A stretch of DNA of 64,000 bases from a virus, in the IMG/VR virus record IMGVR_UViG_3300002835_006866, positions 1-64,000 of that record. One strand, 5' to 3'. Both the position numbers and the translations under genes were made by a program. The notes below the pieces were generated by a model. The model was not told the DNA's origin, made no database searches, and worked only from the letters and a program-made list of their open reading frames with translations. Each line of letters opens with the position of its first letter. Position 1 is the first letter of the stretch. Below are positions 21,838 through 55,148 of the stretch, piece after piece.

Positions 21838-22377
21838 ATGACAGCAATTAATAGAAACCCTAAAAACACCAGTTTTCTTCAACCGAATAAATTTCAGTTG
21901 AATTTTTCACGTTTACCTAACACCCAATTCTTTGTACAAAACTTGAGTGTTCCTGGTATATCTCTTTCTGAAATACCGGTTGCTACTCCATTTGTTGAGA
22001 TGTATTCTCCTGGTGAGAAAGCGATCTATGATTTATTTACGGTAACTTTTATCGTTGATGAAGATTTACAATCATGGAAAGAAATACATGATTGGATTCG
22101 AGCGATGACTTTCCCAACAGAATACAAAGAGTATAAAGATTTGCCTAGACTTAATAAGTATTCTACAAATCAAGTAAGTAAATTTCCACAATTTTCTGAT
22201 GCCACAGTAACTCTACTATCCTCGGCATTTAAACCAAATCTAGTCTTTAGATTTCACGATGTTTTCCCAGTTTCAATATCTTCCTTCATAATGAATGCCT
22301 TAGATGATTCAAACAGCCCTATCACAGCAGATGCCACATTTAGGTATACTTATTACGATGTTGAAAAAATAACTTGA
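21838..22377 (+). CDS. gp3: Tail tube terminator/completion protein gp3
   Basis: FLQPNKF, VPGISL, F.VDEDL..W.EI.DW, F.D.FP.S.S; usual position after gp23. Confidence 0.85.
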   Translation: MTAINRNPKNTSFLQPNKFQLNFSRLPNTQFFVQNLSVPGISLSEIPVATPFVEMYSPGEKAIYDLFTVTFIVDEDLQSWKEIHDWIRAMTFPTEYKEYKDLPRLNKYSTNQVSKFPQFSDATVTLLSSAFKPNLVFRFHDVFPVSISSFIMNALDDSNSPITADATFRYTYYDVEKIT

Positions 22378-22402
22378 CATTTTAACCTCAATGGTATAAA
22401 AT
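22374..22402 (+). promoter_or_regulatory. sigma70-type promoter of uvsY-uvsW
   Basis: TTGACA-N17-TAAAAT, then AGGAGG SD. Confidence 0.7.
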
Positions 22403-32688: not shown

Positions 32689-33288
32689 ATGAAACATAAA
32701 GATATTTTCCAAGAACAAGGATATGTGTTCGTCAAAAATTTTATTGATCCTGCTGTAGCAGATTACCTTTTTGAGTATCTAAGGTTTTCTACACATGCTA
32801 TTGTATTATCAGGACAAAGTAAAGTAGCAATACAGGGAGATGAACAAGTTCCCGGTTCTTATGGTTCCCGACATGGTGATATGGCTTTTGATTCTTTAAT
32901 GAAGCATATGCGGCCAAGAATGGAAGAAGTTACGGGCCTAGAGTTGTATCCTACCTATACTTACACTCGACTATACAAACCAGGTAACGAGCTTAAAAAA
33001 CATACTGATAGGCCATCATGTGAAATCTCCTGTACATTGAAGCTTGGTGATACAGGAGAATATAATTGGCCTATTTGGATGAAAGATGCCGAATATAAGC
33101 TTGACAAAGGCGATGCAGTAGTGTACCGTGGTTGTGATTTGGAACATTGGCGAGAGGTGTGTGAAGGACCTCCTGAATATAGAATGGGTCAAGTATTCAT
33201 GCACTATGTCGATAAAAATGGACCATATCCTGATTACAAATATGATAGAAGAACAGCAATGGCAAAGTTATTTGAAAAAGACCTATGA
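32689..33288 (+). CDS. 2OG-Fe(II) oxygenase-like protein
   Basis: TY.R.Y..G..L.KHTDRPSCEIS, HWRE, QVF.HYV. Confidence 0.8.
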   Translation: MKHKDIFQEQGYVFVKNFIDPAVADYLFEYLRFSTHAIVLSGQSKVAIQGDEQVPGSYGSRHGDMAFDSLMKHMRPRMEEVTGLELYPTYTYTRLYKPGNELKKHTDRPSCEISCTLKLGDTGEYNWPIWMKDAEYKLDKGDAVVYRGCDLEHWREVCEGPPEYRMGQVFMHYVDKNGPYPDYKYDRRTAMAKLFEKDL

Positions 33289-33824
33289 CCACTAAAAAAA
33301 CAAAACACTATATCAACAACTCGGATTTTTTGGCAGCGTTGATTGAATACCAAAAACAATGTGACATTGCCAAAAAAGAAAAGAAAAACGATCCGCCTAT
33401 ACCGAATTATCTAGGTGAATGTTTCTTGAAAATTGCGGAACACTTATCAAGAAAACCAAACTTCATTTCTTATTCTTTCCGTGATGAGATGATTGCCGAT
33501 GGTATAGAAAATTGTTTAATGTATTTTCGTAACTTTGACCCGGTAAAGAGTAACAATCCATTTGCATATTTTACTCAAATCATATATTATGCTTTCTTAC
33601 GTCGAATTCAAAAAGAGAAAAAACAATTATATGTAAAGTATAAGGCAACTGAACAAATTGGTATTCTAGATGAGTTCGAAATGTTTGAAGATGCCGATGG
33701 ACACCAAAAACAATTTCAACTCTATGATAACATATCGGAGTTTATTCAGACGTTCGAGGAAAACAAACGTAAGAAAAAAGAAAACAAAACAAAAGGTCTA
33801 GAAAAATTTATTGATGAAATATGA
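33285..33824 (+). CDS. gp55: Late transcription sigma factor gp55
   Basis: HYINN..FL, NF..YSFRDEMI.DGIENC, NPFAYFTQI.Y.AFLRRI.KEK. Confidence 0.95.
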   Translation: MTTKKTKHYINNSDFLAALIEYQKQCDIAKKEKKNDPPIPNYLGECFLKIAEHLSRKPNFISYSFRDEMIADGIENCLMYFRNFDPVKSNNPFAYFTQIIYYAFLRRIQKEKKQLYVKYKATEQIGILDEFEMFEDADGHQKQFQLYDNISEFIQTFEENKRKKKENKTKGLEKFIDEI

Positions 33825-41709: not shown

Positions 41710-41760
41710 TGTTGTTTATTGGCAACAGCCCTTGACAAAGGGCTGTTTTTTTGATATAAT
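41710..41760 (+). promoter_or_regulatory. Early sigma70 promoter with upstream inverted repeat
   Basis: TGTTG-N8-CAACA then TTGACA(41732)-N17-TATAAT. Confidence 0.8.
41724..41752 (+). terminator. Intrinsic terminator overlapping the -35 of the next promoter
   Basis: AACAGCCCTT-GACA-AAGGGCTGTT followed by T tract. Confidence 0.7.
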
Positions 41761-43022: not shown

Positions 43023-43051
43023 TTGACAAACAAAGAAGGTAAGTTTATAAT
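43023..43051 (+). promoter_or_regulatory. Consensus sigma70 promoter of the HTH gene
   Basis: TTGACA-N17-TATAAT. Confidence 0.85.
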
Positions 43052-44616: not shown

Positions 44617-45306
44617 ATGAAGTTATCAAATGATACCCTTTCTGTACTAAAAAACTTTGGTTCTATCAATCAAGGTTTGTTTTTCAAAAAAGGTAACACA
44701 CTAAAGACAGTTTCTTCTCATAAAAATATTCTCGCTCAAGTGGATATTAAAGAAGATATTCCTACTGATTTTGGTGTTTATGACCTAAACAATTTTCTTT
44801 CTGTAGTTTCTCTACACAAAGATGACCCGTCTTTCGATTTCGACGACAAGCATGTGGTGATCGTTGGTAATAAAGGTCGTAGTAAAATCAAATATCGTTT
44901 TTGTGATCCAAAAATGATTAACACACCACCCGAAAAAGATATTGCAATGCCAGAACCAGAAATCAAGTTCGAATTTTCTTCGGAAGATTTCGAATGGATT
45001 CTACGTGCTGCGTCTGTTCTATCTTCTCCTCATGTGGCTATTCAATCTGATGGTGAAGAAGTTCATATCGTCACACTCGACCTTCAAAATGACTCTTCGC
45101 ATACCGACTCTCTTAAACTAAATGTTAAGGGTGATGGTAACAAATACAAGATGATTTTCAAAACAGAAAACATCACTAAAGTTATGCCCGGTTCTTATGA
45201 TGTTTTTATTTCTTCAAAAGGAATCTCCCGTTGGAATAACAAAAACATCGCTCTAAAATACTGGATCACTACTGAATCTGGAAGCAAATTCGAAAGGTCT
45301 GAATAA
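44617..45306 (+). CDS. gp45: Sliding clamp gp45
   Basis: MKLS..TL.VLKNF.SIN, FG.YDL..FL, F..EN..V.PG.Y.V.IS, YW. Confidence 0.93.
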   Translation: MKLSNDTLSVLKNFGSINQGLFFKKGNTLKTVSSHKNILAQVDIKEDIPTDFGVYDLNNFLSVVSLHKDDPSFDFDDKHVVIVGNKGRSKIKYRFCDPKMINTPPEKDIAMPEPEIKFEFSSEDFEWILRAASVLSSPHVAIQSDGEEVHIVTLDLQNDSSHTDSLKLNVKGDGNKYKMIFKTENITKVMPGSYDVFISSKGISRWNNKNIALKYWITTESGSKFERSE

Positions 45307-51079: not shown

Positions 51080-53632
51080 ATGACAAATAATTATTATACA
51101 AATGTTTCATGCCTCGGAAGTAATATTCTCTTCCGAGGTGTTAAAGACGGCCGGCGTGTTAAGTATAAAGTTGCTTACACGCCGACTTTGTTTTTGAAAT
51201 CAAATAAACCTAGCAAGTATAAATCTCTTGATGGTTTGAGTTTAGAGACAATAAAGTTTCAGACCATTCGTGAATCGAGAGACTTTGTTCGTCAGTATAA
51301 TGACGTTGAAGGATTTAAAATCTTTGGTAATGACCGTTATGAATACGCTTTCATTGCTGATACATTCAAAGGTGACATTAATTGGAACTTTGATGATCTT
51401 TCTATTGCTATAATCGATATTGAAGTTGGATCAGAAAATGGTTTTCCTGACCCATACAAAGTCACAGAGCCTATCACTGCCATTGGAATAAAATATATTA
51501 ATGGAAAAATGATTGTCTATGGTTGTGGTGACTATGACAATCAACGTGATGATGTTACCTACATCAAGTGTAAGAGTGAAATCGACCTGTGTAAAAAATT
51601 CATCGATGATTGGCAACAAAACTGTCCTGATGCAATCAGTGGATGGAATATTCGTTTCTTTGATATTCCATATCTGGTCAATCGAATCAATAACCTTTTG
51701 GGTGAAGAAGAAGTAAAGAAACTTTCACCATGGGGTATCATAAACACAAAAAAGATTACAAAGATTAATCGTGACCTTGATGTTTATGATTTACTTGGTG
51801 TTCCAACACTAGATTATATCGAACTGTATAGATGGTACGCTCCGGCTGGTAAGTCACAAGAATCTTATCGGCTAGATCACATCGCCAGCGTTGAACTGAA
51901 TGAGAACAAACTTTCATATGACGAATATGAAAACTTACATTCATTATATCGTTTAAACTTTCAAAAGTTTATTGATTATAACATTAAAGACGTTGAGCTT
52001 GTACTGAAGTTGGAAGAAAAACTTAAATTGATTGAATTGGGTTTGACTTTGGCTTACGATACAAAAACAAACTATGAGGACATTTTCGCACAAACGAGAA
52101 TGTGGGATTCTTTGATCTATAATTATCTTTTAGACAAAGATATCATTGTTCCACCAAAAACGGTAAAAAATAAGAGTTCGGCTTTTGAGGGTGCTTATGT
52201 GAAAGAACCCCAAGTCGGTGTTCATGAATATGTTGCTTCATTTGACTTGAACTCTCTCTATCCACACTTGATGATGATGTACAACATTTCACCAGAAACT
52301 CTTATTGATACAGAGGATTACACGGATGAAATGCGTGATATTCTTTCAGCAGGCGTAAATGTCGAGAAACTATTAATGAGACAGGTTGACACTTCAAAAC
52401 TCATTGATGCTACAATTACACCAAACGGTCAACTTTTTAGAACTGACTTTCAAGGTTTTCTTCCTAAGATGTTGGAAGAAATGTATGAAGGTCGTAAAAA
52501 ATTTAAGAAGATGATGTTGCAGGCGAAACAAGAATATGAAAAAGAAAATGACGATGAAAAGAAATATGAAATCGAAAAAAGAATTGCACGATATGATAAT
52601 CTTCAACTAGCGAAGAAAGTCTCCCTCAATTCTGCTTACGGTGCTCTTGGTAGTCAATACTTCCGTTTTTATGATTTGAGAATGGCACTTGGCGTTACTA
52701 CAGCGGGCCAATTATCCATTCGTTGGATTGAAAATAAACTAAATGAATATTTAAATAAGTTATTAAGTACAAATAATGAAGATTACGTTATCGCCTCAGA
52801 CACAGATTCGATTTATCTTAATCTTGGTCCGCTTGTTAAAAAGGTGTATGTTGCGGGAGAAAAAGTTCCTTCATCTAGAATCAAGATCATCGAGTTCATG
52901 GATAAAGTCTGCGAGCAGAAGATACAACCGTTCATTGATGAAAGTTACAAGGATCTTGCTACGTATGTTCGTGCATACGCCCAAAAAATGCAAATGAAAC
53001 GTGAAGCATTATCTGATCGTGGCATTTGGACTGCAAAGAAAAGATATATTCTAAACGTACACAACAATGAAGGTGTTCAATATAAAGAACCTCAAATGAA
53101 AGTTATGGGTATGGAGATGGTTAAATCTTCAACGCCTGCTGCTATTCGGGAAAAAATGAAACAGGCTATTCACATTATGTTGAATGGTAAAGAAGGTGAT
53201 ATTCATGACTTCATTGAAGAATTTAGAGAGAAGTTTAAACAATTGCCTCCTGAAGAAGTATCTTTTCCCAGAGGATTGAATGGTTTGAAAGATTATTCTG
53301 ATACCGCTACTCTATATAAAAAAGGGACACCGATTCATGTCAAGGGTGCTTTACTATACAACAATCGGTTGGAATCTTTGAAGTTAGATAAAAAATATCC
53401 AAGGATTCAAGAAGGTGAGAAAATTAAATTTACTTACCTAAAACAACCGAATCCTTTAAAAGATATGGTCATTTCTTATCCAACGAGATTGCCACCAGAG
53501 TTTGGTCTCCATGATTTTGTTGATTATGATACGCAGTTTGAAAAGTCATTTTTGGAACCAATTAAAGTGATTCTCGACTGTATGGGATGGACAACAGAAA
53601 AAACCAATTCATTAGACAGCTTTTTCTCATGA
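51080..53632 (+). CDS. gp43: Family B DNA polymerase gp43
   Basis: DIE exonuclease motif, SFDLNSLYP, K..LNS.YG, DTDS, KKRY; C-terminal SLDSFF clamp-binding tail. Confidence 0.98.
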   Translation: MTNNYYTNVSCLGSNILFRGVKDGRRVKYKVAYTPTLFLKSNKPSKYKSLDGLSLETIKFQTIRESRDFVRQYNDVEGFKIFGNDRYEYAFIADTFKGDINWNFDDLSIAIIDIEVGSENGFPDPYKVTEPITAIGIKYINGKMIVYGCGDYDNQRDDVTYIKCKSEIDLCKKFIDDWQQNCPDAISGWNIRFFDIPYLVNRINNLLGEEEVKKLSPWGIINTKKITKINRDLDVYDLLGVPTLDYIELYRWYAPAGKSQESYRLDHIASVELNENKLSYDEYENLHSLYRLNFQKFIDYNIKDVELVLKLEEKLKLIELGLTLAYDTKTNYEDIFAQTRMWDSLIYNYLLDKDIIVPPKTVKNKSSAFEGAYVKEPQVGVHEYVASFDLNSLYPHLMMMYNISPETLIDTEDYTDEMRDILSAGVNVEKLLMRQVDTSKLIDATITPNGQLFRTDFQGFLPKMLEEMYEGRKKFKKMMLQAKQEYEKENDDEKKYEIEKRIARYDNLQLAKKVSLNSAYGALGSQYFRFYDLRMALGVTTAGQLSIRWIENKLNEYLNKLLSTNNEDYVIASDTDSIYLNLGPLVKKVYVAGEKVPSSRIKIIEFMDKVCEQKIQPFIDESYKDLATYVRAYAQKMQMKREALSDRGIWTAKKRYILNVHNNEGVQYKEPQMKVMGMEMVKSSTPAAIREKMKQAIHIMLNGKEGDIHDFIEEFREKFKQLPPEEVSFPRGLNGLKDYSDTATLYKKGTPIHVKGALLYNNRLESLKLDKKYPRIQEGEKIKFTYLKQPNPLKDMVISYPTRLPPEFGLHDFVDYDTQFEKSFLEPIKVILDCMGWTTEKTNSLDSFFS

Positions 53633-54537
53633 CACAATTTATATTACCTTTTTTGACCGCCATTGCTCTTTCGGGCGTGGCGGCTTATTATTCGGTAATA
53701 GGACTTGCACAGATATTTCCTGGATCTTATTGGCCGGTTATAATCATGGGCACAGTTTTAGAAATAGCAAAATTGGTGACAGTATCATGGTTACATAATC
53801 ATTGGAAAGAAACATTCTCTGCACTCAAGTTTTATTTTTTGATTGCAGTGATATTGCTTATGGCAATTACTTCAATGGGTATTTTTGGTTACCTATCAAA
53901 GGCCCATATTGAACACTCATCAAACATATCACCTTTAGCCGCAAAGGTAGAAATTTATGACAAAAAGATTGAAGCACTCCAAGCGACCATTGAGAGGAAT
54001 GACAAGAACCTTAGTCAGTATGATGCATCTGTCGATGAAATTATGGGCAGGTCGAAAGACGAAAGGGGCGCCGAGAGGGCATCACAGATACGCAAGGCCC
54101 AACAGAAAGACCGTGAGAGAATCGCTTCTGAAAATGCAAGGCTTCAAAAAGAAATACAAAACCTCACGGAAGAAAAACTCCCTTTATCCTTGGAAGTTAA
54201 GAAGGCTGAATCAGATTTGGGACCTATCAAATACGTGGCAGAAGTAGTATATGGTACACAAGACCGTGATTTGATTGATAAAGCAGTTCGACTGGTAATT
54301 TTTATTATTATTATCGTGTTTGATCCACTTGCTGTTTTGCTGTTAGTAGCATCAAATCAAACTTATAGAAAATATGCAGCTGATAAAGTGGACATTTTAC
54401 CAGAAATTAAGGCAAGAAAGAGGAAAAAGATTGACAAACAGCCCGCTAATAGTTTAGACTCTTTTTTTGTTGATACAGAACACGAAGTAATACACAAATC
54501 AAAAATTGCCAATTTTGAGGATGATTCAAAACCATGA
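53629..54537 (+). CDS. Four-TM membrane protein with coiled coil
   Basis: Three N-terminal TM helices, long coiled coil, fourth TM (FIIIIVFDPLAVLLL), basic tail; start set at ATG 53629. Confidence 0.75.
   Translation: MTQFILPFLTAIALSGVAAYYSVIGLAQIFPGSYWPVIIMGTVLEIAKLVTVSWLHNHWKETFSALKFYFLIAVILLMAITSMGIFGYLSKAHIEHSSNISPLAAKVEIYDKKIEALQATIERNDKNLSQYDASVDEIMGRSKDERGAERASQIRKAQQKDRERIASENARLQKEIQNLTEEKLPLSLEVKKAESDLGPIKYVAEVVYGTQDRDLIDKAVRLVIFIIIIVFDPLAVLLLVASNQTYRKYAADKVDILPEIKARKRKKIDKQPANSLDSFFVDTEHEVIHKSKIANFEDDSKP
54431..54460 (+). promoter_or_regulatory. Possible sigma70 promoter for the oxygenase-uvsX-gp41 operon
   Basis: TTGACA-N18-TAGACT inside the 3' end of the membrane protein gene. 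Confidence 0.4.
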
Positions 54538-55148
54538 GGGAAGTAATTGAACTTTTTCCTGTTCCTCTGTATAGAAATAATATTTTCGTTGATGAGGACA
54601 CAAGACGCTTTGTAATGAACTGTAAATACGTAAGAAACGATAATGGTTTGTTCACTGATGCCAAACTTCTCGATCTTCCAGAACTTTCTGATCTCAAACA
54701 CCTGATTCTCAGAGAAGTTGAATATTATGTATATGATTATTTGAAAGTTGTAAAAAATGTTGAGGTATACATTACATCATCATGGGCAGTAAAACACCAG
54801 AGAGGTGATTGGGCACAACCACATCACCATAGTAATAGTATTTTCAGTGGTGTTTTATATGTTAATGTCGATGAAAAAAGTGGTAACATAAAGTTTGTTC
54901 GTGATTCTAGGGCATATAATGTTTGGCCAATTTCTGTTTGTCCTGATGTTGAGGAAGAAAACAGAATTAGTTCTGTTGATTGGGTTGTAACGCCAAAAAT
55001 AAATGACATACTAATTTTTCCATCTCATCTAACACACGAAGTTTCGAGAAATATTTCAGGTATCGAAAGATGTGTTATCGCCTTTAATATTTTCTTTAAA
55101 GGAACTCTTGGTGATACGGAAACTTTACTGATTCTAAACGGAGAATAA
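54534..55148 (+). CDS. Putative 2OG-Fe(II) oxygenase (TIGR02466-like)
   Basis: LFP.P.Y, SW, H.H.NS.FSGV.Y, IFPS.L.H.V, R..IAFN. Confidence 0.82.
   Translation: MREVIELFPVPLYRNNIFVDEDTRRFVMNCKYVRNDNGLFTDAKLLDLPELSDLKHLILREVEYYVYDYLKVVKNVEVYITSSWAVKHQRGDWAQPHHHSNSIFSGVLYVNVDEKSGNIKFVRDSRAYNVWPISVCPDVEEENRISSVDWVVTPKINDILIFPSHLTHEVSRNISGIERCVIAFNIFFKGTLGDTETLLILNGE

Follow-up and report, generated by a model that had tools for sequence, protein, structure and literature searches.

The stretch of DNA considered here, hereafter the window, comprises the 64,000 nucleotides at positions 1 to 64,000 of the IMG/VR virus record IMGVR_UViG_3300002835_006866; it is part of the genome of a T4-like phage, carries all of its genes on the plus strand and finds its best DNA matches among Pelagibacter, Methylophilales and cyanophage myoviruses. 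Within it, the gene for the DNA polymerase gp43 is overlapped at its 3' end by the gene for an inner-membrane protein, P0001, and both proteins carry the heptapeptide NSLDSFF, in gp43 as the C-terminal clamp-binding motif and in P0001 as an internal, candidate sliding-clamp-binding motif of the C-terminal tail. The best-supported description of the P0001 tail segment, judged from sequence comparison, is that it is dual-coded, a predicted internal early promoter being superimposed on a genuine clamp-binding-type short linear motif. The features that bear directly on this finding are as follows.

51080-53632, plus strand: gp43 DNA polymerase, 850 aa (an open reading frame with T4-like marine phage DNA polymerases as its top DNA matches)
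53606-53626, plus strand: gp43 C-terminal clamp-binding motif NSLDSFF (AAT TCA TTA GAC AGC TTT TTC), followed by Ser and the stop codon
53629-54537, plus strand: gene for the inner-membrane protein P0001, 302 aa, its start overlapping the gp43 stop (ATGA)
53638-53892, plus strand: transmembrane (TM) helices 1-3 of P0001, residues ~4-26, 33-55 and 66-88 (AlphaFold2 helices and hydropathy)
53929-54216, plus strand: helical hairpin or coiled coil, residues 101-196, predicted to be periplasmic (AlphaFold2 helices 101-141 and 145-196; predicted local distance difference test score, pLDDT, ~85-92)
54295-54363, plus strand: TM helix 4, residues ~223-245, bearing an invariant FDP motif (AlphaFold2, hydropathy and alignment of homologues)
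54364-54534, plus strand: disordered C-terminal tail, residues 246-302, predicted to be cytoplasmic (pLDDT <50 over residues 257-302)
54415-54429, plus strand: basic patch RKRKK, corresponding to a low-entropy KKKK island and serving also as the A-rich tract upstream of the -35 hexamer
54431-54460, plus strand: embedded promoter, the best promoter-like site in the region, with -35 TTGACA at 54431-36, an 18-nt spacer and -10 TAGACT at 54455-60
54448-54468, plus strand: internal NSLDSFF of P0001, residues 274-280, the candidate sliding-clamp-binding motif (AAT AGT TTA GAC TCT TTT TTT), followed by Val
54487-54516, plus strand: tail motif 2, VIHKSKIANF (consensus h-I-P-K-D-K-I-x-x-h), of low entropy and family-wide

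The occurrence of one and the same peptide in the two tails was the starting point of the original prediction, and both copies were confirmed in the sequence. The gp43 protein ends ...TEKTNSLDSFFS, its NSLDSFF occupying the position of the corresponding segment of T4 gp43 (...ASLDFLFG at the C-terminus), and the P0001 copy ends 22 residues before the end of the protein. When the 95.8-kb contig was scanned with a loose version of the motif, gp43 and P0001 were the only real genes to match, and this genome-wide scan, taken together with the conservation of the motif, rules out a chance match between the two copies. Homologues of P0001 keep the motif: in the form [ST][LIV][ED]x[F]h it is present in 84 of 99 distinct short tails, which belong to proteins down to ~45% identity. 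Among 93 non-redundant close homologues, three islands of low entropy stand out in the tail, namely KKKK, [ST]LExFFxD and IxKxKIA(N/D)(I/M)G; the positions of the clamp-like motif have 0-1.1 bits against 1.9-2.7 bits for the adjacent linker, and the linkers between islands range from 1.4 to 3 bits. The clamp-like motif lies 3-7 residues (mostly 6) upstream of motif 2 in the short tails. Synonymous sites of motif 2 vary freely, which identifies it as a true peptide motif, and the remaining proteins of the loci were found to lack it.

The proteins with which this peptide has to be compared are the presumed partner and the second known type of clamp client, both encoded in the window.

44617-45306, plus strand: gp45 sliding clamp, the presumed partner (phrog_223, E 7e-67)
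33285-33824, plus strand: gp55 late sigma factor (phrog_234, E 2.6e-61)

Among solved structures, the window's gp45 matches the clamps of RB69 (1b77/1b8h) and T4 (1czd). The tails of gp43, gp55 and gp33 are interchangeable clamp-binding epitopes, and the gp55 epitope works also when internal (PMC2988020). That the T4 proteins use SLDFL-like peptides, as the original prediction stated, is borne out by NC_000866, in which gp43 ends ASLDFLFG and gp55 ends PSLDFLYEAND, i.e. with SLDFLF and SLDFLY, respectively. All gp43 tails of the phage group read [ST][LI][ED]xFF followed by zero or one residue, and gp55 in 80 relatives has a tail of the form G-[LVI]-[ED]-x-F-[ILMFV], preceded by a lysine-rich run and often followed by up to ~17 more residues; the window's own gp55 ends ...KTKGLEKFIDEI, with GLEKFI at 33795-33812. 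The consensus drawn from both sets of tails, [STG]-[LIV]-[DE]-x-F-[hydrophobic], accommodates the NSLDSFF of P0001, which, in matching both the gp43 and the gp55 tail of its own phage, has the sequence attributes of a sliding-clamp-binding motif (SCBM).

The same motif is found on further proteins of the relatives, whose loci are designated here by L numbers. In Mom-like proteins (PF25680, E ~1e-57) the C-terminus is extended by ~65 residues that close with [ST]LExFF, a gp43-type ending which suggests clamp-coupled DNA modification; examples lie at L031:3949-4767, L068:1015-1824, L071-L073 and L179:5193 onward. A protein of 424-433 aa ends STLEAF[FL]E or GALD[SN]FFG, and orthologues only 38% identical both keep the motif (...STLEAFLE and ...GALDSFFG). 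It has a weak match to a DNA methyltransferase PHROG, its neighbours in the ESM Atlas are N6/N4 methyltransferase clusters, and it is probably an N6/N4 DNA methyltransferase; it was seen at L005:8603-9877, L029, L060, L103, L105, L135, L136 and L152:9326 onward, and no homologue was found in the contig of the window. Since the motif is carried by gp43, gp55, Mom-like and methyltransferase-like proteins, its behaviour is that of a portable module of DNA-acting proteins, and by its sequence the P0001 copy falls within the range of this module. Small open reading frames situated right after gp43 (L141:236-832 and L185:337 onward) end ...NSLESFFG or ...NVENFFE, repeating the polymerase tail; their N-terminus resembles, by eye, T5orf172 / GIY-YIG-type endonucleases, and they may be the footprint of a mobile-element insertion at the gp43 3' end.

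The nucleotides that encode the motif in P0001 also form part of a promoter-like site, of which the -35 hexamer lies over the I-D-K codons and the -10 hexamer over the L-D-S codons. The original prediction had entered a possible -10 (TAGACT) over the LDS codons as a caveat; the caveat was real and had been understated, the hexamer being paired with TTGACA at N18 and conserved in relatives, where 63-66 of the 77 distinct DNA contexts have nTTGACA-N18-TAGAAT, its synonymous sites being frozen. At the -35 the first residue is L, I or V, Leu being always CTT (baseline 24%), the next residue is Asp, always GAC (30%), and an A-initial codon follows; at the -10 the L, I or V is written TTA, ATA (9 of 12 Ile; baseline 16%) or GTA (17 of 18 Val; baseline 27%) and is followed by GAA and then by a T-initial codon (Ser or Leu). 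Clades without the motif keep TTGACA-N18-TAAAAT, TACAAT or TACCAT at the same place. The 111 distinct gp43 3' ends, by contrast, use all six Leu codons and GAA and GAG in a ratio of 55:52, have no -35 and show only scattered hexamers, and this free variation of codons indicates that conservation of the motif in gp43 is purely at the peptide level. Elsewhere in the window, four perfect TTGACA-N16-19-TANAAT sites are present where 0.8 would be expected, all on the plus strand; three, probably early promoters of the phage, are in intergenic gaps just 5' of genes, and the fourth is inside gp43.

22374-22402, 41732-41760, 43023-43051 and 52386-52416, plus strand: the four TTGACA-N16-19-TANAAT sites (sequence scan)
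54534-55148, plus strand: 2OG-Fe(II) oxygenase gene, the first gene 3' of the embedded promoter (phrog_81, E 3.4e-40)

With its two hexamers, a spacer within the 16-19 nt range and synonymous-site conservation across relatives, the embedded site has the features of a sigma-70-type promoter, and its prediction as a conserved promoter of this type is well supported. The ATG of the 2OG-Fe(II) oxygenase gene follows ~70 nt after the embedded -10, and uvsX comes after that gene.

The protein that carries the motif was modelled with AlphaFold2 using a 70-sequence alignment. The model contains four long hydrophobic helices (residues ~2-29, 31-57, 64-98 and 213-256) and, together with hydropathy, agrees with the earlier description of a four-TM protein with a basic C-terminal tail encoded by a gene overlapping gp43, to which it adds the helical hairpin and the disorder of the tail. 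The start at ATG 53629 is the methionine at which the homologue consensus begins. Over tail residues 257-302 only two tiny helices are predicted, one of a single turn on S-F-F and one on KSKIAN. Mean counts of lysine plus arginine in 70 homologues are 0 for loop 1, 1.6 for loop 2 and 3.9 for the 15 residues after TM helix 4, and many long-tailed relatives have CxxC...CxxC zinc-ribbon-like segments in their tails; on these two grounds we favour a predicted topology in which both termini are inside, the hairpin is periplasmic and the tail is cytoplasmic, the placing of the tail being that of the original prediction. In aquatic viromes the family is very common (>7800 close homologues, 4307 clusters at 50% identity); it combines a conserved core of ~245 residues with hypervariable C-terminal extensions and has the appearance of a membrane scaffold whose cytoplasmic tails can be exchanged.

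We propose that the last ~110 nt of the membrane gene carry two overlapping signals, one acting at the level of DNA and the other at the level of protein. The internal promoter (A-rich tract, TTGACA, 18 nt, TAGACT) would probably start a transcript for the downstream early genes, i.e. those for the 2OG oxygenase and uvsX, and the same codons, with the flanking Ser/Thr and Phe-Phe, would spell the clamp motif of the group, [ST]-[LIV]-[DE]-x-F-F, following a lysine patch within a disordered, ~55-residue tail that is predicted to be cytoplasmic. P0001 would be co-translated with gp43 by way of the ATGA overlap, and its tail would insert into the hydrophobic pocket of the gp45 trimer in the manner of the gp43 and gp55 tails. 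It might thereby keep DNA-loaded clamps, and with them replication forks or complexes of late transcription, at the inner membrane, or it might instead compete with gp43 and gp55 for free clamp. Binding of gp45 by the P0001 tail is the reading that we prefer, and we put it at even odds. The wider reading, to which we would give a probability of roughly 0.35, is that in T4-like phages of marine and freshwater habitats the tail of an inner-membrane protein captures gp45 and either couples forks or clamp-activated late transcription to the envelope or acts at the membrane as a sink for the clamp, timing the changeover between the two, the motif being written in the nucleotides of an early promoter and the Mom-like and N6/N4 methyltransferase-like enzymes also riding the clamp.

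The most immediate alternative is that selection acts on the promoter only, TTGACA-N18-TAGAAT dictating [LIV]-E-[S/L] and leaving the resemblance to the gp43 tail as a by-product that involves no binding of the clamp. The freezing of synonymous sites exactly at the two hexamers, set against their free variation in gp43 tails, is what such an account predicts, and the site fits the promoter class of the window in sequence and in its distance from the next gene. The promoter is also spread more widely than the peptide, being kept without the motif at L168-L184, L177, L193 and L124, and wherever the hexamer is present motif position 4 is limited to T-initial codons (S, L). Yet the peptide outlasts the promoter. 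In clades that lack the hexamers, S-L-E-x-F-F or T-I-[DE]-N-F-F persists through synonymous changes amid diverging linkers: in the promoter-less clades with x = T or A, SLE[TA]FF is kept in 20 distinct tails, with L, E, F and F at 0 bits and S at 0.3 beside a seven-residue linker of up to 2.3 bits, and synonymous variation is seen (e.g. AGT CTT GAA ACT vs AGC TTA GAG ACT); a separate promoter-less clade has T-I-[D/E]-N-F-F, in which D/E is coded by GAC, GAT or GAG. Phe at motif position 5, which lies outside the hexamers, is present in 69 of 76 loci, both TTC and TTT being used and a CTT Leu replacing it in one 7-locus clade, and Asp 282, likewise outside, is also nearly invariant. Nor is the Glu-coding G that most lineages have at the third base of the -10 forced by the promoter, which tolerates A or C there, as lineages with TAAAAT, TACAAT and TACCAT demonstrate; these encode h-K-F, h-Q-S and h-P-Y and are without the motif. 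The KKKK patch persists in promoter-less clades and has its counterpart in the lysine run that precedes the gp55 motif, and the chance of obtaining [ST]...F-F given the promoter, roughly estimated from residue frequencies, is ~3e-4. A pure DNA artefact is not upheld, since promoter-less clades keep the peptide, and we consider it unlikely that the promoter accounts for the motif by itself; several lines of sequence evidence suggest that the peptide is probably selected in its own right, besides the promoter.

Selection on the peptide may of course serve a partner other than gp45, and the motif, the lysine patch and motif 2 would then constitute one tail module binding another cytoplasmic protein of phage or host, or a membrane surface, with a merely convergent likeness to clamp motifs. 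Motif 2 (IxKxKI) is older and more widely spread than the SCBM-like motif, the spacing between the two is nearly fixed, the tail modules of relatives are quite different, as expected of a general membrane scaffold, and distant homologues (SCTP-2, immuto, Mosig) occur in mixed genomic contexts, all of which would suit such a module. However, the motif, including the basic run that precedes it, is within the range of the two established clamp partners of these phages, and three further families of DNA-acting proteins bear it as an appendage; a different partner seems to us improbable. To a recent duplication or gene conversion from the gp43 3' end as the source of the shared peptide we give almost no credence. 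The two genes are adjacent, and a 198-aa open reading frame inserted after gp43 at L141 also ends NSLESFFG, but the two NSLDSFF copies differ in three of seven codons and seven of 21 nt, with both Ser codons different at all three bases, the flanks are without similarity and homologues with as little as ~45% identity still carry the motif. The codon comparison is the reason why the shared peptide is not a recent DNA copy, a point on which the original prediction was right, and recent duplication was rejected on it.

Several observations nevertheless weigh against capture of gp45 by the tail. The motif is absent in 15 of the 99 short tails, in Mosig, in L082 and in all long-tailed members, and many clades admit other residues (Y, M, I, V, A, T) at its position 6. 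The promoter explains most of the conservation at [LIV]-E-S and at the upstream (L/I/V)-D, and perhaps that of KKKK; with a promoter in the same codons, conservation of the motif alone is weaker evidence than it looks. Independent selection on the peptide rests on three or four promoter-loss events only. Furthermore, no residue-by-residue co-variation was found between the motif and the phage's own gp43 tail: position x and the choice of D or E vary independently, the gp43 tail having D and the membrane protein E at L106 and L153, and D occurs in both only in the lineage of the window. The expectation that the motif would match the gp43 tail is consequently borne out as a fit to the gp43 and gp55 tails of the group and fails as co-variation. 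Likewise, the proposal of a membrane anchor for the clamp is partly supported: it gains from the identity of the peptide, its conservation and a disordered tail predicted to be cytoplasmic, so that two of the outcomes named as refuting it, loss of the motif in homologues and a periplasmic tail, did not arise, and it loses by the confounding promoter and the missing co-variation.

Searches against family and structure collections placed P0001 in no curated family (Pfam, PHROGs) above threshold, and a PDB profile search and Foldseek on the membrane core returned only coiled-coil or topology-level noise, with no solved fold matched. Neighbouring clusters in the ESM Atlas are auto-named 'DUF4407'; P0001 itself is without a match to DUF4407 (PF14362) at E<=1, the gathering cut-off being 31.3 bits, and some relatives match it below threshold (15.8-21.9 bits, E 1e-4 to 9e-3). 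The score of P0001 against Tetraspanin (PF00335), 24.4 bits against a cut-off of 32.1 bits, extends over TM helices 1-3 only, and the resemblance is one of topology only. A weak match to the Rz-like i-spanin family (phrog_739, E 2.6e-4) is confined to the coiled coil, and was rejected in view of the four TM helices, rather than one, of P0001; a spanin reading was rejected also for want of a lipoprotein partner, the peptide of the +1-frame open reading frame nested in the gene being without Cys or lipobox.

Long-tailed members of the family (P0133, P0137, P0145, P0150 and others; loci L186-L210) share recurrent tail modules, none of them in Pfam: YEPDDGPLTxEQIxQIK, a zinc-ribbon-like unit CxxC...PNKxCDV, HPYLxxPFxHF, and a C-terminal domain ...KWIEVDK...YIxxLIxKIxxGEYDxxxLS. 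The contexts of distant homologues are mixed and uninformative, with topoisomerase II genes in SCTP-2, a holin and a chitinase nearby in immuto and a glucosaminidase beside the gene in Mosig. In Salicola phage SCTP-2 (L086:690-5089) the homologue lies directly 3' of genes for two topoisomerase II subunits (homologues of T4 gp39/60 and gp52), with clpX thereafter, which provides a second replication-gene context for the family. The tail of the homologue from Microcystis phage Mel-JY01 (L084:3962-5053) contains ...AQSLFP... and ...IESLFN..., resembling bacterial beta-clamp-binding motifs; neither a DnaN- nor a gp45-type clamp gene was detected in Mel-JY01, a weak negative, given that the phrog_223 control matched nowhere. 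In about half of the relatives a gene for a 185-198-aa protein resembling cupins and Asp/Arg hydroxylases (ending ...VFDVPHSKNNP) is placed between gp43 and the membrane gene (L013:4462-5004, L009, L016-L019, L023-L025 and others), so that the two genes are usually, not always, directly adjacent. No T4 late promoter TATAAATA was found near the membrane gene; this core has three copies in the 64 kb (12740, 19309 and 21825) against 6.3 expected, all on the plus strand and just upstream of structural-gene open reading frames.

One further feature of the membrane gene is the nested frame already mentioned.

53957-54247, plus strand: +1-frame open reading frame of 96 codons, encoding a very basic peptide without Cys, within the coiled-coil region (list of open reading frames)

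It lies in the GC-richer, coiled-coil part of the gene, and each of the 75 relatives examined, those of 52-64% identity among them, has an open +1 frame of 87-107 codons beginning with ATG. Per lineage, P values were 0.0005-0.03 under within-gene synonymous shuffling and 0.001-0.14 under resampling with genome codons; the frame is thus only moderately unexpected given the amino-acid sequence, and may be either an overprinted gene or a by-product of composition.

The replication of T4 has long been reported to be membrane-associated. We know of no link between clamp and membrane, and literature searches found none. If the P0001 tail binds gp45, P0001 would be the first example of a phage sliding-clamp partner anchored in a membrane and would offer a testable handle on the positioning or timing of replication or late transcription. 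The segment is at the same time a clean example of dual coding, with a promoter and a short linear motif in the same codons, and it illustrates how constraint at the DNA level can masquerade as peptide conservation.

Among known systems the closest likeness is to the SCBM of T4 gp43, gp55 and gp33, which, as in P0001, is an S-L-D/E-x-[FL]-[FY] hexamer on a flexible tail for which an internal position is tolerated (PMC2988020, PMC7892883), and which the window's gp43 bears at the homologous position. The T4 proteins are soluble factors of DNA or RNA polymerase, whereas P0001, a candidate binder by its sequence, is a polytopic membrane carrier with the motif 22 residues from its C-terminal end and with codons that double as a promoter. 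A more distant parallel is offered by PIP-box proteins such as p21 and DNMT1, whose L-x-x-F-F core is likewise embedded in disordered sequence flanked by basic residues. In P0001 a short helix is predicted on S-F-F, similar to the 3-10 turn of the PIP box, and the methyltransferase and Mom-like enzymes of the relatives bear the motif much as DNMT1 rides PCNA; the P0001 motif is without the conserved Gln, however, the clamp is of a different family, and the sequences do not point to inhibition or to a beta-strand contact made by the segment that follows. T4 also has a membrane protein gene directly 3' of its polymerase gene, as Imm and Imm.1 are encoded after gene 43; Imm, a superinfection-immunity protein of 83 aa, has neither a clamp motif nor sequence similarity to P0001, so that the analogy is positional only. 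The uncharacterized DUF4407 (PF14362) proteins share the layout of P0001, with TM helices, a long coiled coil and a final TM helix. Lastly, the embedded site resembles the intragenic sigma-70-type early promoters of T4-like phages, with TTGACA-N17/18-TAnAAT, an A-rich upstream tract, orientation along the gene strand and a position ahead of early replication or recombination genes; unlike those, it is situated wholly inside coding sequence and is held there by constraint on codon choice across lineages down to 45% identity.

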